64,000 bases of DNA, from NCBI GenBank assembly GCA_910577205.1, contig CAJTMA010000008.1:2575-66574 (forward strand). The letters are read 5' to 3'. Origin of the DNA: an uncultured Alphaproteobacteria bacterium (lineage in GTDB: Bacteria; Pseudomonadota; Alphaproteobacteria; RF32; CAG-239). The notes beneath the pieces are model-generated. The model was not told the DNA's origin, made no database searches, and worked only from the letters and a program-made list of their open reading frames with translations. Made by a program: the position numbers and the translations under genes. This document shows, one piece after another, positions 9,703 through 39,412 of the stretch (its first letter is position 1; each line of letters starts with the position of its first letter).

Positions 9703-9765
9703 AACATGACACACAACCTCACTAAACATCACGCCAATCATTTGTGCAGCCCCAAGCCTCCCTTC

Positions 9766-9962
9766 ACAGGAGAACAACATTAGATGTCCGCCAAACACAC
9801 AATAATTCGAGCAACAGTTGCGAGAAAGAATTGCGCATTTAACGGAATAGATAATATTTGTTCCACGGAGCGCAGAAGCGGAGTGTACACGATAGTACAT
9901 GAGCATTCGAGCACAGGAGAACAACATTAGATGTCCGCTAAATGCACAATAATTCTCGCAAC
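9766..9962 (+). repeat. 146-bp-period direct duplication of the SD, ATG and first codons of the radical SAM gene
   Basis: 9766-9816 and 9912-9962 differ at 5 of 51 positions: cacaggagaacaacattagatgtccgc(c/t)aaa(ca/tg)cacaataattc. The junctions share attcgagca. Confidence 0.85.
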
Positions 9963-12010: not shown

Positions 12011-12046
12011 GTTGCATTTTAACAGCAAATACACTATTATTCTTCT

Positions 12047-12550
12047 ATGACTGATAATAAAACAACGCCAAATATTTTCTTTGTTGAAGCTTTATTGCAC
12101 CTACTATTTCTGATTGGTGCTTTTATGTTTATTAATCCTTGGATAAATTTTCCTTATCCTGACGGAAACAAATACGAATTAATCAAATATTACAGCTTAT
12201 TAACCACTGAAGTCAGCACAGTTTTTATATTGATTAGCTTGCCCTTTCCGCTAAAAGTCGACAGAGGACTTTTTTTACTTATAATTCTTGTCACTTTTCC
12301 AACATTTTTTATTTTTGCGAGATCAATACACGAACTTCTTATTGTAATAACTAAAGACAGCCAATCACCAGAAATCAAAATGTTTTTCAACTACTATAGC
12401 TATGCAAAAACACTTCCTCTCATCCTTTACATATTAGGTTACATTAACAAAAAACTGTTCTGGATTATGGCCTCCATCCCTATCGCCTGTTTCTTTTTTT
12501 CTGTCATCTGGTTTGAACTTTTCAGTAAACCTTTCTATTGGAATCAATAA
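12047..12550 (+). CDS. Small 4-TM membrane protein, paralog A (candidate immunity or holin-like)
   Basis: 167 aa with four hydrophobic segments. By eye it is about three quarters identical to 14594-15139, and the first 44 nt are identical. It shares the YILGYINKKLFW motif. Confidence 0.6.
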   Translation: MTDNKTTPNIFFVEALLHLLFLIGAFMFINPWINFPYPDGNKYELIKYYSLLTTEVSTVFILISLPFPLKVDRGLFLLIILVTFPTFFIFARSIHELLIVITKDSQSPEIKMFFNYYSYAKTLPLILYILGYINKKLFWIMASIPIACFFFSVIWFELFSKPFYWNQ

Positions 12551-12572
12551 TATCTTCATCCATTAATAACCA

Positions 12573-12610
12573 CAGGAAGATAAAATGAAAAACAACATTT
12601 TATCTTCCTG
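12573..12610. terminator. Bidirectional intrinsic terminator between convergent genes
   Basis: CAGGAAGATAAAATG-aaaaacaa-CATTTTATCTTCCTG, a perfect 15-bp stem. Confidence 0.75.
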
Positions 12611-12635
12611 ATATTTAGCTTACCTTCAATCAGAA

Positions 12636-14369
12636 TCAAAAATCTTCTTCGTCTGGTTCATCGTCGTGATTTTCTGATGCATAACTTGAACGGACATAAG
12701 ACTTGATTTCATCTTCCTTTTCATCTTTCAAATGATTAAACGCCGATGTCGTTTTATCACCGATATCATTATCTTCCTTAAGCGCTTCATACCCTGAAAC
12801 CTTTTGCCCAATCTCGTTTAACCCTTTCTGCAAAAAGCTTCCACCATCATTAGGACGAATAGACGACATTGTCTGCTGAAGCGTTTCTTTCTCAAACGGC
12901 TGTTGACGTTTTTGCTCCATCACATTGGATAATCCGCCATACCCAATACTTTGCTTCACCTTATCCACACCATAACGGCTCAAAGCCTCCTTCGTGCGGG
13001 AAGTTGTTTTAGCACCCAAAATACCATCTTCCTTTAAGGCAGAACCATCACCAAAAGAATTCAACCCTTTTTGTAAAGATTTAACTCCCAAAGGTGCAGC
13101 TTGCTTTGCAACAGCTTCATATGCCTGATTAAGTGTCATTCCGCCATTCAGCCGCAACTCACTTCGTTCTTGTGCTTGAGCTTTTTTGGGCTCAGAAACT
13201 AATTGCCGGCCAAATTCATCACGTTTGACAGCCTCCGTACCGTAATAATGATCATACCACTTTCCCTGCATCTCATCCGCCTGCTTTTTACGTCTAATAT
13301 CCTTATTTTCATAAAGATAATGGCGCATTCCGCTTTTCAATTCCTCCTCGGTAATCTGCTCCACCGGCTTATACAAAATATCTTCATCAGGATTATTATG
13401 CTTTTTTAACGCCTCTAAAATAGAATTTTCTTCAACAGAATATTCCTCAGGCTTAGCGATGGCTGACAATTTATCACCGGACAACGGCGTAACCGATTTC
13501 TCATCAGGCTTAGGCGACTGCAGTGCAACTTGACGGTCAGCCCTTTGCGGCAGATTAATCCGTGTCCCCTCTTTCAAGCTCATGTTTTCATTAAAACTGG
13601 CATAGGCCGGATTGATTTGCGCATCACGCTGCAGATTTTGAACCATATCTTCTTTAGAAATCCCATGCTTATCTCCGATTTGCGCCAAATCCTCGCCTGC
13701 TTTGGCTTTCACGCTTCGGGTTTCCAAATTCTTCTCATCATAGCGTCGCAACTTATCTCGATTTTCCCAAATCTCACGCTGCAAATCTTCTTTCGTCAGC
13801 TTCGCCCCATATTTATTAAATAAATCAATACCGATTTCCACCATCGGACTATCTTTACTATCAAAATCAACCCAATCTAAATGTTTTAACCTTTCAACAC
13901 CCCATTGCCCAAAGTCATCAGTCACAGCCCCTCCTTTGGTTACCAAGTCATTATACCCCGCTGCTGCTAAAGTATACCCATAGGAAATATTTCCCCAAAA
14001 ATCATGATCATAAATATACGAATTATCTCCCGGAATCTTACCACCAAACACCACCGGCTGTCGTCCCGAAGAATTAATCTCATCTTTCCGATAATAACTT
14101 GGCAAAATCTTTTTCATCGCTGGTTTATGATCCCATGCCCCTATTCGATCACCTTTACTTGTAGAATTACGGTAAACCTGTTTCAGATTTGATATATCTT
14201 TTGACCGCAATAAATAGCCATTCCCTAAAATTGATTTTTTATTATCCTCTCGCATTCTAAGTATTTCAGGATCACTATGACGTGACATCATATCTTGATA
14301 AACCCTCTCCAATGCTTTTTCATAGTCTTCCACATCAATTTTATTACTTTTAGCAATATCATTTTTCAT
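12636..14369 (-). CDS. LysM plus two PG_binding_1-like repeats protein with an unassigned N-terminal ~230-aa domain (cell-wall-targeting effector or lysin candidate)
   Basis: The start is set at ATG 14369 (MKNDIAKSNK, GGAGAT SD), because the track extension to 14474 runs through terminator hairpins. A LysM-like segment reads GEDLAQIGDKHGISKEDMVQNL..LKEGTRINLP. Two repeats follow: LQKGLNSFGDGSALKEDGILGAKTT and LQKGLNEIGQKVSGYEALKEDNDIGDKTT. There is no signal peptide and the tail is acidic. Confidence 0.7.
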   Translation of the reverse strand: MKNDIAKSNKIDVEDYEKALERVYQDMMSRHSDPEILRMREDNKKSILGNGYLLRSKDISNLKQVYRNSTSKGDRIGAWDHKPAMKKILPSYYRKDEINSSGRQPVVFGGKIPGDNSYIYDHDFWGNISYGYTLAAAGYNDLVTKGGAVTDDFGQWGVERLKHLDWVDFDSKDSPMVEIGIDLFNKYGAKLTKEDLQREIWENRDKLRRYDEKNLETRSVKAKAGEDLAQIGDKHGISKEDMVQNLQRDAQINPAYASFNENMSLKEGTRINLPQRADRQVALQSPKPDEKSVTPLSGDKLSAIAKPEEYSVEENSILEALKKHNNPDEDILYKPVEQITEEELKSGMRHYLYENKDIRRKKQADEMQGKWYDHYYGTEAVKRDEFGRQLVSEPKKAQAQERSELRLNGGMTLNQAYEAVAKQAAPLGVKSLQKGLNSFGDGSALKEDGILGAKTTSRTKEALSRYGVDKVKQSIGYGGLSNVMEQKRQQPFEKETLQQTMSSIRPNDGGSFLQKGLNEIGQKVSGYEALKEDNDIGDKTTSAFNHLKDEKEDEIKSYVRSSYASENHDDEPDEEDF

Positions 14370-14385
14370 AAGCTTTATATCTCCA

Positions 14386-14444
14386 TAAAAAAAATCCGCC
14401 AAAAATGGCGGATAAATAAAAAACCCCGAACCAGACAGTCGAGG
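14386..14444 (-). terminator. Two tandem intrinsic-terminator-like hairpins inside the 5' leader of the LysM gene
   Basis: Read on the minus strand, the first is CCTCGA-ctgtctggt-TCGGGG followed by TTTTTTATTT. The second is ATCCGCC-attttt-GGCGGAT followed by TTTTTTTT. The second U-tract ends 16 nt before the ATG. Confidence 0.6.
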
Positions 14445-14593
14445 AGTTAAGGACACACTTATAGCAAGTGGCAATTAAACTTTTAGACTAAAACCACAAC
14501 AAAATCAAGAATAAAATCCTAAAATCCACAATAAATATAAATTGATTTAAAATTACTTATTGCACTTTAAATTTTAATCTTTACAATAGGCTT

Positions 14594-15139
14594 ATGACTG
14601 ATAATAAAACAACGCCAAATATTTTCTTTGTTGAAGCATTATTACACCTGCTGGTTCTTACTAATGCCTTTATGTTTTTTAACCCGTGGATTAATTTTCC
14701 TTATCCTAGCGAAAACAAATACGAATTAATCAAATACTACAGTTTATTAACAATAGAAGTAAGCTCGGCCTTTCTGCTGATTACCATGCAGTTCCGACTA
14801 AAAGTCGATAGAGGACTTTTTTTACTCATAATTCTTGTCATTTTTCCGACATTCTTTATATTTGGAAAATCAATGCAAGAACTTTTTAATATATTAGCCA
14901 AAGATAACCAATCACCAGAAATCCACACTTTTTTTAAACATTATATTTTTAAATATTATAATCGATATGTATCAATAACCCCTCTAATCATTTACATATC
15001 AGGCTACATTAATAAAAAACTGTTCTGGATTATAGCATCCATCCCCATTGCCTGTTTCTTTTTTTCTGTTATCTGGTTTTTCATATTGAGCGAACCTCTA
15101 TACTATTCTCATCTTGGGGATAATACTTTTACTCGTTAG
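14594..15139 (+). CDS. Small 4-TM membrane protein, paralog B
   Basis: 181 aa. It opens MTDNKTTPNIFFVEALLHLL as in paralog A and carries YISGYINKKLFWIIASIPIACFFFSVIWF. Confidence 0.6.
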   Translation: MTDNKTTPNIFFVEALLHLLVLTNAFMFFNPWINFPYPSENKYELIKYYSLLTIEVSSAFLLITMQFRLKVDRGLFLLIILVIFPTFFIFGKSMQELFNILAKDNQSPEIHTFFKHYIFKYYNRYVSITPLIIYISGYINKKLFWIIASIPIACFFFSVIWFFILSEPLYYSHLGDNTFTR

Positions 15140-15231
15140 CATATATTAAAGTCCGATTATCGCCCAGCAACATCCTTTGCTTATTGCATATAACCATTGC
15201 TTTTTTTTAATTTACACAATATACTGTTTTC

Positions 15232-15705
15232 ATGATAAATCTTAAGAAACTACATCGCCCTTTTCAGCTAGTGCTCCATTTAGCGCTTCTTTTTATCATT
15301 GTGATAAATATCACACCAATAATAAATCACTATATTCCAGGCTCTCAAGACTGCAAAAAAATACATGACTACAGTTTACAAATTGTCTGCCTAAGTACAA
15401 TCTTCTTTCTCATAACAATGCAATGGCAACAGAAAGTTCACAACTTCGCGCTAACATCCATTATCTTATGTACTTTATTTAATATGTTGCTGTCAGCCGC
15501 TTGCATCCACCGGCATTTTATGATTTATACTTTTGGCCCTCTGCCAACGTCAATAGAGCTTATCCTTTTAACTTCATCCAAGATGGGCTTTCTCGCCCTG
15601 CTCATCTATATTTCCGGCTTTATTAACAAAAAACTGTTCTGGAGCTTAGCCACATTTTCACTTTTATATATGCTGTCCGTGTTCATATATTACTGGGATA
15701 TGTAA
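15232..15705 (+). CDS. Small 4-TM membrane protein, divergent paralog C
   Basis: 157 aa. It has the same topology and the YISGFINKKLFW motif but is otherwise diverged. Confidence 0.55.
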   Translation: MINLKKLHRPFQLVLHLALLFIIVINITPIINHYIPGSQDCKKIHDYSLQIVCLSTIFFLITMQWQQKVHNFALTSIILCTLFNMLLSAACIHRHFMIYTFGPLPTSIELILLTSSKMGFLALLIYISGFINKKLFWSLATFSLLYMLSVFIYYWDM

Positions 15706-18328: not shown

Positions 18329-18354
18329 AATTTAAGGATTCAATCGGATACTAC

Positions 18355-18731
18355 TATACGAGTTAAAAAACTCGGAGAATGTGGCATATAATAAGAATTA
18401 AGAGAGAAAAAAGCGCAGCATACATAGAGAAGTATGTGAGCATCTTTCCTACACGCCAATTCTGTATTAGATACCATTATACGAGTTAAAAAACTCGGAG
18501 AATGCGGCATATAATAAGAATTAAGAGAGAAAAAAGCGCAGCGTACACAAGAGTATATGAACATCTTTCCACACGCCAATTCTGTATTAGATACCATTAT
18601 ACGAGTTAAAAAACTCGGAGAATGTGGCATATAATAAGAATTAAGAAAGAAAAAAGCGCAGCGTACATAAAAGTACGTGAGCATTTTTTCTACTCGCTAA
18701 TTCTGTATTAGATGACCATTATACGAGTTTT
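18355..18731. repeat. Tandem array of 3.1 copies of a 120-123 bp unit
   Basis: The unit marker tatacgagtt recurs at 18355, 18478, 18598 and 18720. Each unit holds CGAGTTaaaaaAACTCG and a GCGCAGCGTACA..GTA(C/T)(G/A)TGA(G/A)CA hairpin. The array fills the whole HAD/lepA spacer. Confidence 0.9.
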
Positions 18732-26035: not shown

Positions 26036-26350
26036 CCTGTACTGCGCAGTAATTTTGAACGCCTCTAAACCCAAAGTTTGGATAGCGTGTGCTCAGAATA
26101 AATTTGGAGAATGAGTTGAGAGCAAGCTGGAATAAACTTGATAAAGGCCTGTGCTGCGAAGTAATTTTTTGAACGACACAACAAACTAAAAGTTTGAATA
26201 GCGTGTGCTCAGAATAAATTTGGAGAATGAGTTGAGAGCAAGCTGGAATAAACTTGATAAAGGCCTGTGCTGCGAAGTAATTTTTTGAACGACACAACAA
26301 ACTAAAAGTTTGAATAGCGTGCGCACAGAATAAATTTGGAGAATGAGTTG
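26036..26350. repeat. Tandem array of about 2.8 copies of a 112-117 bp unit
   Basis: The unit marker cctgt(a/g)ctgcg recurs at 26036, 26148 and 26265. Copies 2 and 3 are nearly identical over ~85 bp, and each unit contains aaatttggagaatgagttgag. Confidence 0.9.
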
Positions 26351-26365
26351 AGTAGTAGGCGTTGA

Positions 26366-28331: not shown

Positions 28332-29840
28332 TCAATATTTTACTTGTTCAACAATAACTTTATTACCTAACGCACAAGTATAAACAACACCAAAGTCTGT
28401 TATTTCATAATCAACATAATTATCCGCAGGTGCAAATTTCAAACTATAATAACCATTATCAAATTCTTTAAGCACATCTGTATAACCGTCAGCATTATTA
28501 ATAATAACACATTTCCATATCGGAAAATGGTCAACCATTGTCACAACATTATTTCCGCGCCCCGGACTGATAGTATCGTTACCTTGATAGGAATAAATTT
28601 CATCATCTCCGCTTCCCCCTTCAACACGCGTTTCCGTAGGGCCGCAATGAACTTCATTATTACCGCCAGTACAATAAATGTCAACTGAACGTGCCGGAGG
28701 ATAAGAACCGCTGGCATATATGACATCATCCAGTTCTGTTCCTACAACAACTTTTTTAGCCGTCGTCCCGGTCGGCATTCCGTCTGTTTCGGCAATCCCC
28801 AATTCAGTATAAAGATTCCAAGAGGAAAAAAGATTAGAATAATTTCTCTCCCTATCATTCCCTTTAATTTTCAAAAACTTCCGAACAGCTTCGGTAAAAT
28901 GGGTTTGCATACACCGATAACATTTTTCCTTATAACCGGGAATATTTAAAAGTTTATCTTTCATTCCCTGCCAGCGGGCATTCATAAATGCCACAACCAA
29001 ATTAACATTATCAAAATCATCCGTAACCGGTAAAGAGCAATGAGCATTTTCAGGAGTAGGCAAACTGTTCAAGATTTCCCCCATAAAAGCACAAGCTTCC
29101 ATAAAACGGCGATTTTGTATTCCTTTACTGATATTTCCTGCTTCTGCATTACAATTATACAAAACCTGATACCATGCTTCCATTTTGCCAATAAGTTTAG
29201 ATGTTTCATCACCATCACTGGTATATAAACGCAAAGCATTTTTCATCTTCGGTCCGATATAAGCCTTAGAACCGACCGGAGAATTATAGTTCAAGGAATA
29301 TAATGCCAAACGTTCATTCTTTGTCAAATTATTCCATACAGAAATTTCCGTATTAAAAACATCCTTAACACCGACGATACCATAACCATCATCCACCCCA
29401 CCTAAATAAGCCGCATAAGCCACTTGCTCAAAGGCACGGATATTTGCACCTTCCCAATCTTCTTGATCTTTCAACTTTAATCTGGCTTCATCTTCCGGAT
29501 AATCTGAATTTTCCCCAAAAGGTTCGCCAGCTCGATGAGACAGCAGATATTTCAGTTCAGCCAAAATAGTGCTTTCCCCTTTAATATCCCACTTTCCATC
29601 AACATATTCATAATGTTTTACTTCAGAACTCCAAGTTTTTTTAGTACCTTGATAAAAGCTATTGATATAGTCTTGCAAAAATTTATCATTTTTGTCATCC
29701 AAACGCACACCAATCCCATGGGTAGGATATCCACCATTCTTGTCATCATAATAAATACCATTTCTATCACCTTCCGACTTAAACAAAAAATCTTTTACTT
29801 CTGTTGCCGTCGGATCAATTTTAGTCGCAGTCTCAGTCAT
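28332..29840 (-). CDS. Lysozyme-like (GH24-type motif) protein with C-terminal RTX-like glycine/aspartate repeats; effector candidate
   Basis: 502 aa with no signal peptide. The N-terminus has KSEGDRNGIYYDDKNGGYPTHGIGV (E...Y.D..G..T.G.G), LTKNERLALYSLNYN and IQNRRFMEACAF. The C-terminus has GGSGDDEIYSYQGNDTISPGRGNNVV. Confidence 0.6.
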   Translation of the reverse strand: MTETATKIDPTATEVKDFLFKSEGDRNGIYYDDKNGGYPTHGIGVRLDDKNDKFLQDYINSFYQGTKKTWSSEVKHYEYVDGKWDIKGESTILAELKYLLSHRAGEPFGENSDYPEDEARLKLKDQEDWEGANIRAFEQVAYAAYLGGVDDGYGIVGVKDVFNTEISVWNNLTKNERLALYSLNYNSPVGSKAYIGPKMKNALRLYTSDGDETSKLIGKMEAWYQVLYNCNAEAGNISKGIQNRRFMEACAFMGEILNSLPTPENAHCSLPVTDDFDNVNLVVAFMNARWQGMKDKLLNIPGYKEKCYRCMQTHFTEAVRKFLKIKGNDRERNYSNLFSSWNLYTELGIAETDGMPTGTTAKKVVVGTELDDVIYASGSYPPARSVDIYCTGGNNEVHCGPTETRVEGGSGDDEIYSYQGNDTISPGRGNNVVTMVDHFPIWKCVIINNADGYTDVLKEFDNGYYSLKFAPADNYVDYEITDFGVVYTCALGNKVIVEQVKY

Positions 29841-29876: not shown

Positions 29877-30905
29877 TTAATAAGATAATAATTTGTTAAT
29901 TTTTTCATTCAAAGGCTTAGCTTTTTCTTCTTGTTTCAAAAACATCAACCTATGAGCCAGAGCGTCCTTACCATAATTATCTTTGAGATGAATATCTGTT
30001 CCGCAATCAATGAACATTTGCACTAATTCCAACGTTAATTCCGTACTTTCCCGTCCCTCTACCGAACTAGATAAAAAGTACATCAGTGCCGTATAACCTT
30101 GCGTATCTTGAACATTCGGATCAATTCCTTTTGCACAGAGAAAAGGCATCATCTCCGACAAATATTTTGCATTAGTCGAAAACAATAAAGAGCGATGTAA
30201 CAAAGGATCAACGTAATTAACCGCTTCCGGTTTCATCTCAATAATTTTTTTCAGAACATTCCTAGGAGTCATCAACACATATGCCCCTCCATAACACTTT
30301 TTATTGGACACATATTCAGTAACATTTGCCCCTTTGCTTAAAACATAATCAAAAACTTCCTTCTTCCGCATTTGATCAAAATTTCTGTCTCCCATATATG
30401 CCGGACAATCATCAACAGCTATTTCTCCGTTAATATCGGCTCCGTCTTTTATTGCCTTATCTGCCAATTTAAAATCACAAATATTTCGGCTATAATCTAT
30501 TATTCCCGTTTCTGCATCTCTTACAAACTTACAAGCAGTGTCGAGGTAAAAACTTAACTGGCGATTTTTTACCCACTGAATCCCGTAGAGATAAATAGAT
30601 TTCAGACAGTCTTTTTTATTTTTAGTTTTCGGATCGCACTCAAATTTATCACGCTTATCTACCCATCTCTTCCATACTTTTCTTGCCGGTGTATAGCCTC
30701 CATCTAAAACAAAAGCCTGATAGCGTTTGATTTTCGTATAACGTTCAGCCAGTTCATTATCCAGTTTGGCTAAATCATCATCGGCACAAACCAGTTTCTC
30801 CGCTTCTGTCTGCACATTAGCGCAATCAAAACTCGGTTTAACCGCAGCCATAATTTCTGCCGAATAAAAAACGCCTGACAAAACAAGCAATAAAAACTTA
30901 AACAT
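29877..30905 (-). CDS. Secreted DUF1311 (LprI lysozyme-inhibitor-like) plus ankyrin-repeat protein; immunity candidate
   Basis: 342 aa. The signal peptide is MFKFLLLVLSGVFYSAEIMA. FDCANVQTEAEKLVCADDDLAKLDNELAERY...WKRWVDKRDKFEC matches the DUF1311 logic. The C-terminal half has ANK-like repeats (GYTALMYFL..FIDCGTDIHLKDNYGKDALAH). Confidence 0.6.
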   Translation of the reverse strand: MFKFLLLVLSGVFYSAEIMAAVKPSFDCANVQTEAEKLVCADDDLAKLDNELAERYTKIKRYQAFVLDGGYTPARKVWKRWVDKRDKFECDPKTKNKKDCLKSIYLYGIQWVKNRQLSFYLDTACKFVRDAETGIIDYSRNICDFKLADKAIKDGADINGEIAVDDCPAYMGDRNFDQMRKKEVFDYVLSKGANVTEYVSNKKCYGGAYVLMTPRNVLKKIIEMKPEAVNYVDPLLHRSLLFSTNAKYLSEMMPFLCAKGIDPNVQDTQGYTALMYFLSSSVEGRESTELTLELVQMFIDCGTDIHLKDNYGKDALAHRLMFLKQEEKAKPLNEKINKLLSY

Positions 30906-37166: not shown

Positions 37167-38534
37167 ATGGCTAAAACCAGCTTTTGCGGCATCTCCGGCA
37201 GCGGCATGAGCGCCCTTGCGCAAATTCTTAAACATCAGGGGCACGAAGTCCGCGGTTCTGACCGCAGCTTCGATCAGGGCAAAGACCAAGCCAACCGCAA
37301 TGCCCTTGAAGCTATGGGAATTAAAATTTATCCGCAAGACGGATCAGCCATAACCGATGATCTGGACACCCTATATGTTTCCAGCGCCGTGGAAGACAGC
37401 ATTCCTGATATAAAAGCGGCTTTAAGCAAAAATATTCCCGTCAAAAAGCGTTCTGACTTGCTGGCCGAGATTTTTCATCAATACCCGCATAACATTGCCG
37501 TCGGCGGCACAAGCGGCAAAACCACAGTCACCGCAATGATAGGCTACATCCTTGATAAACTCGGGTATAAACCAACAATGATTAACGGCGGGCTGCTGCT
37601 TAATTATGCTGATATGCCGGGCATTCCCAACATCATCTGCAACAACGGGGATACCTGCGTGATTGAAGCGGATGAAAGCGACGGCTCAATTGAAAAATAT
37701 TCCCCTTACATCGCCGTTATCAACAACATATCTATTGACCACAAACCGATTCCCGAATTGCAAAAATTATTTGGAGATTTTGCATCCCGCGCCAAACACG
37801 GAGTTGTCGTCAATGCCGACTGCACGGCTTGTGCCAACATTAAAAATCCACAAAAACCGAACTTGTCTTTTTCCATCATCAACCCCAATGCCGATTTTTA
37901 TGCAATGAATATCACCCCTCTGCCCCATGGCGTAAAATATACGTTAGACGGTAAAGATTTCACACTCAAACTTATCGGGCAATTTAACGTTTCTAACGCT
38001 CTGGCCGCAATCGCCGCCTGCTCCCTGCTGGGAATTGATAAATTCGATGCCGCTCAGGCGTTGGAGGGCTTCTTAGGCACACACCGCCGATTAGAAGTTG
38101 TCGGTGTCCGCAACAACATATCCGTGATTGATGATTTCGCCCATAATCCCGATAAAGTCAAAGCTTCCGTTTCTGCTCTCCGCGACTATCCCGGACGCCT
38201 AATCATGATGTTTCAGCCTCACGGCTTTACGCCGATGCGCATGATGGGCCGGCAGATTATTGACGAATTTACCGCGCAAATGAATAATGACGATCTCCTT
38301 CTGCTGCCGGAAATATATTTTGCCGGCGGTTCAGTCACCCGCGACATATCCTCGCAGGATTTGGTCAATTATGCCAAAGAAAAGGGCAAACAGGCTTTAT
38401 TCTTTGCAACCAGAGAAGACTGCGGCCAATTCATTATCGCCAATGCCCGTCCGCAAGACCGCATTGTTATTATGGGCGCGCGCGATAACACACTGCCCGA
38501 ATTTTGCAAAACCATTTTGAAAGAGATAAAATAA
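37167..38534 (+). CDS. Mur ligase family protein (MurC/Mpl-like, probably a murein-peptide recycling ligase)
   Basis: 455 aa with GISGSGMSALAQIL, GGTSGKTT, EADESDGS and DDFAHNP. It lies outside any dcw context and is coupled to ldcA by a TAATG overlap. Confidence 0.7.
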   Translation: MAKTSFCGISGSGMSALAQILKHQGHEVRGSDRSFDQGKDQANRNALEAMGIKIYPQDGSAITDDLDTLYVSSAVEDSIPDIKAALSKNIPVKKRSDLLAEIFHQYPHNIAVGGTSGKTTVTAMIGYILDKLGYKPTMINGGLLLNYADMPGIPNIICNNGDTCVIEADESDGSIEKYSPYIAVINNISIDHKPIPELQKLFGDFASRAKHGVVVNADCTACANIKNPQKPNLSFSIINPNADFYAMNITPLPHGVKYTLDGKDFTLKLIGQFNVSNALAAIAACSLLGIDKFDAAQALEGFLGTHRRLEVVGVRNNISVIDDFAHNPDKVKASVSALRDYPGRLIMMFQPHGFTPMRMMGRQIIDEFTAQMNNDDLLLLPEIYFAGGSVTRDISSQDLVNYAKEKGKQALFFATREDCGQFIIANARPQDRIVIMGARDNTLPEFCKTILKEIK

Positions 38535-39412
38535 TGTTCTGCCTGCAACCCGGAGATAAAGTCGGAATTGTGACCCCTGCCTCATTTATCCGCCAAGGCG
38601 ATATCGACAGTGGTTTGCATTATTTGCAAAGTTTAGGCTTAATACCGGTTCTCGGCCAACACGTTTACAACGAATGGCATTACATGGGCGGCACTGCAGA
38701 GCAACGCGCGGCAGACCTGATGTCTTTCTATCGCGATGACAGCATCAAAGCCATTTTTACCTCACGCGGCGGCGGCGGCAGTTCATATATCCTGCCCCAT
38801 CTGGATTACGAATTAATCAAGGCCAATCCCAAACCGCTTTTCGGGCTGAGTGACATCACTATCCTCCAAAATGCTGTTTATGCCCAAAGCGGCTGCCCGT
38901 CATATACCGGAATGATATTAAAGCAGGATATGAAAGACAATGCCTATGCCATGCCCTCTAACGATTTTCAAAACCTCATCAACGGCAATGAAATGACGTA
39001 CACCGGCGGACAAACCGTTACTTCCGGACACGCCGAAGGCACACTTATCGGCGGCAATTTAACCGCCTTGTCCTACCTGTTCGGCACAACTTATATGCCG
39101 GAACTAAGCGGTAAAATTTTGTTGCTGGAAGACATCGGCGGCAAATCTTTTTGGATAGACTTACGCTTGCAGCAACTACGCCAAACACCTGGTTTTGATA
39201 AACTCCAAGGCATTATATTCGGCGAATTCTCAGATTGCACGATTATTGATAAGGAAGATGGCACTCCCGATGAAATCATCGATACTTTCTGCCAAAATTT
39301 AACCATCCCGGTCATCAAACATTTTCCCTACGGCCATATTCCCGCCCGACACATTCTGCCTGTCGGACTGCCCGTTAAATTTAATGCCGATGACTGCTCC
39401 GTGCGTTTTTAA
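38534..39412 (+). CDS. ldcA: LD-carboxypeptidase (peptidase S66)
   Basis: The start is set at ATG 38534, overlapping the preceding TAA. Motifs are GDKVGIVTPAS, TSRGGGGS, GLSDITIL and FPYGH. Confidence 0.8.
   Translation: MFCLQPGDKVGIVTPASFIRQGDIDSGLHYLQSLGLIPVLGQHVYNEWHYMGGTAEQRAADLMSFYRDDSIKAIFTSRGGGGSSYILPHLDYELIKANPKPLFGLSDITILQNAVYAQSGCPSYTGMILKQDMKDNAYAMPSNDFQNLINGNEMTYTGGQTVTSGHAEGTLIGGNLTALSYLFGTTYMPELSGKILLLEDIGGKSFWIDLRLQQLRQTPGFDKLQGIIFGEFSDCTIIDKEDGTPDEIIDTFCQNLTIPVIKHFPYGHIPARHILPVGLPVKFNADDCSVRF

Follow-up and report, generated by a model that had tools for sequence, protein, structure and literature searches.

An Ntox44 toxin-like protein with wall-binding modules and opposite-strand membrane partners: a candidate toxin/immunity module of gut Alphaproteobacteria

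Within a 64,000-nucleotide (nt) stretch of DNA from an uncultured alphaproteobacterium (the window), we analyzed the block at positions 12047-15705, which encodes a 577-residue toxin-like protein and three small membrane proteins, here called 4TM-a, 4TM-b and 4TM-c. The explanation we favor, with moderate confidence, is a toxin/immunity module that is fixed in the chromosome and akin to polymorphic toxins, has an inverted, cell-wall-anchored architecture and uses the 4TM proteins as membrane immunity. A leaderless Ntox44 toxin would be tethered to peptidoglycan (PG) by LysM and PG_binding modules, which would hold it back in the sacculus or periplasm and raise its concentration there. Its target in competing or sibling cells would lie in the envelope and would not be cytoplasmic RNA, and the 4TM proteins would act as inner-membrane immunity, neutralizing the toxin at the periplasmic face or within the membrane. 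Two leader hairpins resembling intrinsic terminators may keep toxin expression off until a signal for antitermination or derepression acts on a conserved inverted repeat or close to it.

The N-terminus of the toxin-like protein matched Ntox44 (PF15607, 'bacterial toxin 44') at residues 77-186 (31.7 bits against a cut-off of 24; E = 2e-7), and the same Pfam match was present in all aligned members of its family (18/18; best E = 4.6e-13). An earlier reading made from the sequence only had left the first ~230 residues unassigned, and these are the residues that matched above the Pfam cut-off. Zhang et al. 2012 list DxK, GNxxxG and an acidic motif for the domain (PMC3482391). The invariant motifs of our family (D80-H-K82, G126-N-I-S-Y-G131 and D170/D173) match invariant columns of classical Ntox44, with the acidic pair spaced DxxD in the alignment, as against DxxxD. 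The GN..YG core that the sequence-only reading linked to some polymorphic-toxin domains is this GNxxxG motif (PMC3482391). In the window protein the motifs lie at residues 79-82 (WDHK), 120-123 (YDHD), 126-131 (GNISYG) and D170/D173, and every superfamily-invariant residue is retained (W79, D80, H81, K82, D123, N127, I128, G131, G138, D173, G180 and L183); judged by these residues, the domain is apparently catalytically intact.

When 1.84 billion representative proteins were searched with a profile built from residues 1-212 (E ≤ 1e-3), 392 proteins were retrieved, and 127 of the 133 tested were Pfam Ntox44. The close family (about 11 clusters, E < 1e-30) carries the domain at the N-terminus. 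In many other matches Ntox44 is C-terminal, behind RHS, WXG100, Hcp (TssD), PAAR-like/DUF4280 or MuF modules; some large secreted members join it with subtilase, CHAP, SLT or M23 domains, and a few place it N-terminal to a LysM and Phage_Mu_F segment, so that fusions across the superfamily include CHAP, SLT, M23, LysM and PG_binding_1. Homology spans ~200 residues and begins at about residue 13 of 577, leaving no room for an N-terminal export signal.

AlphaFold2 (AF2) modeled residues 1-212 as mainly helical with a short beta-hairpin at 107-121 (pLDDT 74, pTM 0.75), and the full protein with a mean pLDDT of 77. Foldseek searches of both models against PDB and BFVD returned nothing at E < 1, including no match of the Ntox44 domain to PG hydrolases; TseR, an Ntox44 effector, is without an experimental structure (10.64898/2026.05.10.723254), and there is no solved Ntox44 structure for comparison. 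Of the two approaches that had been suggested for this region, the profile search led to Ntox44 and the fold search gave no lead on function. A PDB sequence search with the full protein gave only a chance match to MoaB (E = 0.19), and NCBIfam and PHROGs gave no match to it. By tblastn, the N-terminal domain had no match in phage records and matched only three Streptomyces Ntox44 genes on plasmids. The sequence-only reading had proposed a PG-directed effector with membrane immunity. Its toxin/immunity part is supported by the Ntox44 match and by the linkage and classical neighbors described below, while for a PG-directed catalytic domain the fold searches gave no PG-hydrolase match, and the one published Ntox44 activity is that of an RNase. 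The features of the block are as follows (strand in brackets).

12047-12550 (+): 4TM-a, open reading frame (ORF) for a 167-residue membrane protein, a candidate for immunity, between the ampD-like and toxin genes
12573-12610 (-): terminator-like hairpin with a 15 bp stem, just past the toxin stop, between the convergent 4TM-a and toxin genes
12636-14369 (-): gene for the 577-residue toxin-like protein, based on its ORF, GGAG ribosome-binding site (RBS), homologue alignment, Pfam and AF2
12639-12704 (-): acidic tail of the toxin protein, C-terminal to repeat 2
12720-12857 (-): PG_binding_1-like repeat 2, residues ~505-550, GSFLQKGLNEIG...LKEDNDIGDKTT, an internal repeat in the alignment
12960-13097 (-): PG_binding_1-like repeat 1, residues ~425-470, GVKSLQKGLNSFG...LKEDGILGAKTT, with the Pfam PG_binding_1 match at E = 0.0098
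13545-13733 (-): LysM-like segment, residues ~213-275, aligned with the LysM-matching region of family members
13734-14327 (-): Ntox44 domain (PF15607), residues ~15-212, the Pfam envelope (residues 77-186) lying at 13812-14141
14370-14480 (-): 5' leader of the toxin gene, with an inverted repeat and two terminator-like hairpins before the RBS
14594-15139 (+): 4TM-b, 181-residue paralogue, head-to-head with the toxin gene
15232-15705 (+): 4TM-c, 157-residue diverged paralogue, positional orthologue of the ruvX-side copy in locus L007

The toxin gene starts at the ATG at 14369, which has GGAG upstream and whose equivalent, an MKND-type methionine, begins 17 homologues; the mechanical ORF reaches back to a TTG at 14474 (612 residues), and the 577-residue length of the sequence-only reading was right. 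No hydrophobic 19-residue window occurs anywhere in the protein, which agrees with the earlier statement that it lacks a signal peptide and indicates that it has no transmembrane (TM) segment either. A known trafficking domain was found by neither Pfam nor NCBIfam. From the N-terminus the protein consists of Ntox44, the LysM-like segment, a helical linker, the two PG_binding_1-like repeats and the acidic tail, and the domain sketch drawn earlier was therefore essentially correct, with LysM as its least certain element. In the window protein the PG_binding_1 match is weak and below the cut-off, while the family matches in 17 of 18 members (best E = 2.7e-5); PG_binding_3 matches 13/18. LysM matches 11/18 (best E = 0.0015) and was not reported in the window protein. 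Distant relatives with an N-terminal Ntox44 carry clear LysM (E to 5e-9) and PG_binding_1 (4.5e-12) domains, and in the family alignment both C-terminal repeats bear an invariant LQ.GLN...LKED..G.KT. Foldseek gave weak matches for the C-terminal wall-binding parts only, to TtsA in its PG-binding region (E about 1 at a probability of 0.6-0.7) and to the LysM region of intimin.

We then considered how the toxin and 4TM families are distributed. In a 5.8-billion-protein collection the toxin family comprises 25 clusters at 90% identity, all of 570-615 residues and either unnamed or labeled 'hypothetical', with genome matches in Candidatus Scatocola faecipullorum (Alphaproteobacteria, Rhodospirillales; chicken gut) and in the metagenome-assembled genome 'Alphaproteobacteria bacterium UBA7488'. 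The family is confined to a narrow group of gut alphaproteobacteria. Linkage was scored only in loci with DNA upstream of the toxin gene, which cover four distinct genomic neighborhoods, and at least one 4TM gene stood head-to-head with the toxin gene in every one of them (1-3 copies), so the co-occurrence of the two families that the sequence-only reading wished to see examined is indeed found. The opposite-strand layout, with partners head-to-head and convergent, is the same in the window and in L001, L004, L007, L009 and L011:

Window: ampD/ruvX site, three 4TM copies
L007: toxin 50% identical, same ampD/ruvX site, three 4TM copies arranged as in the window
L001, Ca. Scatocola: toxin 63% identical, same ampD/ruvX site, two 4TM copies
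L004, a metagenome contig: toxin 38-39% identical, unrelated neighborhood, two 4TM copies
L009, an 829-kb contig: unrelated neighborhood, one 4TM copy
L011: unrelated neighborhood with a VirD4/TraG-like gene adjacent, one clear 4TM copy and one doubtful

One distant 4TM member looked up for context (P0041) also adjoins a toxin gene. It belongs to the lineage of L019-L022 (at least 24 contigs), where the toxin gene is frameshifted into 179 + 421 codons and this single partner of 142 residues is truncated, its C-terminal conserved motif gone. Toxin and 4TM partner have decayed together in this lineage.

The 4TM proteins had been described as three paralogous four-helix proteins. Their paralogy was upheld (4TM-a and 4TM-b share 73% protein identity, and 4TM-c is 31-35% identical to these), but a clean count of four was not: hydropathy of the family profile showed four strong hydrophobic segments and a short fifth bearing the motif Y-I-S-G-[YF]-I-N-K-K-L-F, that is, 4-5 segments. 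Conserved residues are H18, K70, Y128, K135 and F138, with K135 an arginine in 2/10 copies and replaced in 2 later-found members. The family has 17 clusters in the 5.8 billion proteins, none with a Pfam domain or a name; Pfam, NCBIfam and PHROGs gave no match (the holin check covered five family members), and a family profile found only chance matches in PDB. 4TM is a previously undescribed small integral-membrane family.

Divergence is much faster in these partners than in the toxin. A comparison of the window with L001 gives 25-32% identity for the 4TM proteins and 63% for the toxins, and between the window and L007 the ruvX-side copy is the sole recognizable 4TM orthologue (59%). Duplicate pairs within genomes share 73%, 56% and 50% identity, indicating lineage-specific duplications. 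The 'expanding array' of the sequence-only reading thus gives way to a copy number of 1-3 made up of old, diverged copies and lineage-specific duplicates, and this combination of fast divergence and duplication is an immunity-like pattern of evolution. At the DNA level 4TM-a and 4TM-b form direct repeats (12046-12537 and 14593-15102) with 83% and 80% identity across 300 and 142 nt, bracketing the toxin gene. As a separate observation, recombination between these repeats would remove one copy along with the toxin gene; in Ca. Scatocola (L001) the copy on the ampD side is absent.

The function expected of Ntox44 is ribonuclease (RNase) activity. Pfam and Zhang et al. group the domain with predicted RNases (PMC3482391, PMC12165300), and it has been included among characterized nuclease domains (PMC9635880). 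According to a review, TseR, a PAAR-Ntox44 effector of Yersinia pseudotuberculosis, is a divalent-cation-dependent RNase (PMC13577199), the sole biochemical activity published for an Ntox44 domain, and secondary sources report it as active against bacterial and eukaryotic cells (PMC13577199, PMC13141884). Such an activity leads one to expect a cytoplasmic target and a soluble cytoplasmic immunity protein. We therefore looked at the genes that follow classical Ntox44 toxins, in a metagenome scan with a classical-Ntox44 profile that yielded 80 loci (62 non-redundant). A same-strand ORF of at least 80 residues, starting -60 to +120 nt from the toxin stop, was present in 48/62 loci. By a crude hydropathy rule applied to ORF calls of our own making, 37 of these 48 downstream proteins (77%) contained a TM-like segment, which in 35 cases fell within the first 50 residues; the control, made up of other ORFs from these loci, gave 25/79 (32%; one-sided Fisher test, p = 5.6e-7). 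Several of the downstream 'negatives' were high-GC ORFs of doubtful reality or proteins whose lipoprotein signal had escaped the rule.

Individual loci illustrate the pattern. A WXG100-Ntox44 gene (L013) and another Ntox44 gene (L017) are each followed by a related ~200-residue protein with an N-terminal membrane anchor, an RHS-Ntox44 gene (L014) by a signal-anchored 204-residue protein, a WXG100-Ntox44 gene of an NCBI genome (L018) by a 130-residue multi-pass protein, an Hcp-Ntox44 fusion (L104) by a 132-residue protein with a lipoprotein signal, and a Streptomyces plasmid gene for 'polymorphic toxin type 44' by a 103-residue 3-TM protein with a 4-nt overlap. Among the classical partners are two types, 3-TM (~125-140 residues) and single-anchor (~200-220 residues), neither with a Pfam family; the recurrent unannotated 3-TM family carries the motif x-[IV]-G-[IV]-N. 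Like 4TM, both types are membrane-embedded or exported and genetically coupled to an Ntox44 gene; their genes lie downstream, often overlapping the toxin stop, whereas 4TM genes lie head-to-head. A shared immunity family for 4TM and the classical 3-TM proteins was considered and dropped (hhalign probability 1.8%, unrelated). The two are not homologous, so the resemblance is one of kind and not of descent. The prevalence of membrane or exported proteins downstream of classical Ntox44 conflicts with the RNase label and speaks for immunity in the membrane and for a site of action in the envelope.

These data bear directly on the possibility that the window protein is a cytoplasmic RNase toxin, as annotated, whose LysM and PG_binding modules dock on target walls and whose 4TM neighbors are not classical binders but, for example, block import or have an unrelated role. 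We consider this unlikely. It has on its side the RNase activity reported for TseR, the placement of Ntox44 with predicted RNases, and the conservation of catalytic residues with classical members. It fits poorly with the membrane-anchored or exported proteins, among them the lipoprotein after the Hcp fusion, encoded directly downstream of most classical Ntox44 genes, which would be unexpected for nuclease immunity, and with the window locus, where there is no soluble candidate immunity gene.

The leaderless wall-binding protein could instead belong to an export or lysis module, in which the 4TM proteins would be holin-like or dedicated channels for it, as in type 10 secretion or with TtsA, and the protein would act on the producer's wall or be released through it. 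A toxin protein that has no signal peptide yet carries periplasm-facing wall-binding modules, its strict co-occurrence and co-decay with membrane genes, and the weak Foldseek match of its C-terminal part to TtsA are all consistent with this idea. Still, we found no PHROG, Pfam or NCBIfam likeness to holin or endolysin families; the partners, at 157-181 residues with 4-5 hydrophobic segments, have no charged C-terminal tail; up to three diverged paralogues would be unusual for holins; and the genes are divergent rather than a cassette and have no phage context. We regard an export module as improbable, and the domesticated endolysin-plus-holin system that the sequence-only reading offered as its alternative is not supported by the same database, layout and context results. 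We prefer immunity to an exporter role for 4TM because membrane or exported neighbors occupy the canonical immunity position even beside Ntox44 toxins that come with type VI secretion (T6SS), type VII secretion (T7SS) or RHS modules for export, because no other conserved neighbor could be the immunity protein, and because nothing in the 4TM proteins resembles holins.

The chromosomal site also has to be weighed. One flank of the block is an Amidase_2/AmpD-like gene (E = 2.5e-27) and the other RuvX (E = 8e-43; both Pfam), with djlA-like, radical-SAM, tolB and lepA genes beyond, and a Pfam survey places the window in the core chromosome (ribosomal proteins, SecY, RpoA and pyruvate kinase). The four ORFs between the ampD-like and ruvX genes and their A+T-richer DNA, as noted earlier, were all confirmed. 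GC content is 0.29-0.36 across the 4TM genes and spacers and 0.41 in the toxin gene, against 0.44 for the window; at third codon positions (GC3) it is 0.33 in 4TM-a, 0.31 in 4TM-b, 0.36 in the toxin gene and 0.44 in 4TM-c, and 0.43-0.58 in six neighboring genes. The shift is real but moderate, and modest for the toxin gene; since GC3 is lower than in the neighbors, it is more than an amino-acid effect. A tRNA scan and an Rfam scan of the window gave no match, so no tRNA marks an island boundary and the leader holds no known riboswitch. The ORF list shows no mobile-element genes in the block. A recent horizontally acquired island, as the word 'island' in the sequence-only reading implied, was rejected because the block is syntenic in relatives whose toxins are only 50-63% identical, even though GC3 is still low.

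A housekeeping role would account for part of this. The protein might be a domesticated, wall-associated enzyme or scaffold that works with membrane partners in the producer's own wall turnover, its antagonistic role lost. The retention of the ampD-like/ruvX position in relatives with a protein only 50-63% identical, the absence of mobile-element genes, and the PG-recycling genes of the window (the adjacent AmpD-like gene and the Mur-ligase-family and LD-carboxypeptidase genes at 37167-39412) agree with such a role. On the other hand, the modules of L004, L009 and L011 lie in unrelated neighborhoods, the module is dispensable and pseudogenized in the widespread L019-L022 lineage, the partners evolve fast and vary in copy number, the family is limited to a narrow group of gut alphaproteobacteria, and GC3 in the block falls below that of neighboring genes. 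We think it very unlikely that domestication explains the locus.

Several observations nevertheless weigh against a wall-anchored toxin with 4TM immunity. Linkage and co-decay would be equally well explained by a dedicated exporter, and the published RNase activity of TseR, as given in secondary sources, predicts a cytoplasmic target and soluble immunity (PMC13577199). Classical toxin-immunity pairs have the immunity gene downstream in the same transcript, whereas the 4TM genes are divergent. Conservation is far higher in the toxin domain than in its partners, and a simple pairwise signal of co-evolution is therefore missing. The module is inherited vertically at one chromosomal site in diverged relatives, which also fits housekeeping. 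Among 28 further large ORFs of the window, Pfam identified core metabolism, ribosomal/SecY/RpoA genes and one RTX protein, but no apparatus genes of type I (T1SS), type IV (T4SS) or type VI secretion. To these we add the crude rule and self-made ORF calls behind the downstream-gene statistic, and the hhalign result that separates 4TM from the classical 3-TM family.

The toxin gene is preceded by a structured leader. On the toxin strand its elements (leader fold z = -2.9) are, in order, the inverted repeat GCCACTTGCTATAAGTGTG (about 14453-14472; conserved repeat GCCACTTGCTATAAGTG), two hairpins with U-runs (about 14424-14444 and 14394-14413), and the RBS directly after the second hairpin. L001 (5857-5978) and L007 (3992-4050) have the same tandem layout with compensatory changes in the second stem, and the inverted repeat is near-invariant there though the proteins are 50-63% identical; L001 additionally has an 11/12 sigma-70-like promoter just upstream. 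L009 (4940-4970) and L011 (2266-2291) carry a single hairpin and T-run at the same place, while L004 has a 54-nt spacer with no leader hairpin. No Rfam family matched. Judging from the three to five sequences that share these elements, the leader looks like an attenuation or antitermination control, a kind of regulation that would make sense for a toxin gene.

Some further loci deserve mention in their own right. In L004 (1-12300) the module is clustered with a Phage_lysozyme-family protein, a 1314-residue RTX protein whose N-terminus is lysozyme-like, a gene joining PG_binding_1 and lysozyme-like parts (split in L004, intact in L002) and several signal-peptide proteins, a cluster that looks like an arsenal of wall-directed effectors. 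Elsewhere in the window, a gene at 28332-29840 (-) encodes a 502-residue protein with RTX (HemolysinCabind) repeats whose N-terminal half resembles the lysozyme-like parts of the L004 RTX and Phage_lysozyme-family proteins (E = 7e-13 and 6e-6); adjoining it at 29877-30905 (-) is a signal-peptide protein with weak ankyrin matches. These two genes may form a further effector/immunity pair of this genome, wall-directed and of the T1SS type. L008, whose contig begins at the toxin gene (P0021) and which therefore lies outside the 4TM linkage count, has two paralogous lipoprotein-signal proteins of 117 and 120 residues convergent with the toxin homologue at its 3' end (1881-2593).

Other features of the window lie apart from the block. 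A 51-nt direct repeat (9765-9815 and 9912-9962; 90% identical, 147 nt apart) covers the start of the radical-SAM gene and the intergenic DNA between it and the djlA-like gene. Two intergenic tandem arrays were found, one at 18347-18729 separating lepA from the HAD-like gene (3.1 copies of a 120 bp unit, 90% matches), which yields a spurious repetitive 114-residue ORF, and one at 26073-26352 (2.4 copies of a 116 bp unit, 98%). At 37167-39412 a Mur-ligase-family gene adjoins an LD-carboxypeptidase (Peptidase_S66) gene, possibly an Mpl/LdcA-type pair for PG recycling; with the AmpD-like gene adjoining the module, the region is rich in wall-turnover genes.

A broader proposal, which we put forward tentatively and hold to be possible rather than probable, is that the Ntox44 superfamily acts mainly on the envelope and is countered by membrane-embedded or exported immunity proteins, the locus described here being a wall-tethered, 'toxin-first' version with a new 4-5-TM immunity family and a tandem-terminator switch. 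The activity could be, for example, that of a metal-dependent hydrolase of lipid-linked or wall-associated phosphodiester or pyrophosphate substrates at the outer face of the cytoplasmic membrane. If so, the database function of Ntox44 ('RNase') would be at odds with the location of its immunity proteins, and the question of its target would be directly testable for a domain that is widespread in T6SS, T7SS, RHS and phage-head delivery systems and has even been transferred to corals. The locus would also define a new small membrane-protein family of candidate immunity factors, show a polymorphic-toxin domain recruited to a leaderless wall-binding architecture in poorly known gut Alphaproteobacteria, which raises the question of export, and supply a compact conserved tandem-terminator leader as a candidate switch of toxin expression. 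Should the site-of-action reading be wrong, the locus would be another Ntox44 toxin with an odd domain order.

Among known systems, classical Ntox44 toxins such as TseR share with the window protein a catalytic domain that is homologous across ~200 residues, its WDHK, YD..GN..YG and acidic motifs, and a partner gene next door; the window domain differs from theirs in being fused to LysM-like and two PG_binding_1-like modules, and its partners in being divergent, multi-copy, multi-pass and of a new family. Classical polymorphic toxins (Zhang et al. 2012) carry a C-terminal toxin domain behind a trafficking or repeat module, whereas that of the window protein is N-terminal, with no RHS, PAAR, Hcp, WXG100 or LXG module. 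Their immunity gene lies directly downstream and co-directional, as opposed to the opposite-strand, head-to-head and convergent partners of the window.

The layout has a closer counterpart in the operons of pore-forming colicins, where fold and mechanism are unrelated and no Pfam likeness was found. In pore-forming colicins such as colicin A (Cai) and E1 (Cei), a small 3-4-TM inner-membrane immunity protein is expressed from its own promoter on the strand opposite the tightly regulated toxin gene; these operons are plasmid-borne and SOS-regulated and include a lysis gene. For the site of action the working analogy is TelC-TipC and colicin M-Cmi, in which an aspartate-rich, metal-dependent toxin acts at the outer face of the membrane and is met by membrane-anchored immunity. 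TelC is an LXG lipid II phosphatase of Streptococcus intermedius. No sequence or fold likeness of the window toxin to either system was detected (PDB sequence search, Foldseek).

The Xanthomonas T4SS effectors (X-Tfe) combine a catalytic domain, a PG-binding domain and a C-terminal signal, with periplasmic immunity. Like them, the window protein is leaderless and has an N-terminal enzymatic domain followed by PG-binding modules, with candidate envelope-located immunity; unlike them, it shows no XVIPCD-type C-terminal domain, for which no aimed search was made, and the window has no T4SS genes. A VirD4/TraG-like gene stands beside the toxin homologue in L011/L012 only. Holin-endolysin systems and type 10 secretion (TtsA of Salmonella Typhi) likewise place a leaderless wall-binding protein beside small membrane proteins; their cassettes are co-directional, whereas the window genes are divergent, without a holin-family match or phage context, and the window toxin has no muramidase, amidase, peptidase, endopeptidase or transglycosylase domain (Pfam, NCBIfam, PHROG; no N-terminal Foldseek match at E < 1). 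Together, these comparisons show a catalytic domain that is known, Ntox44, in a locus that differs from both the classical polymorphic toxin locus and the holin-endolysin cassette.

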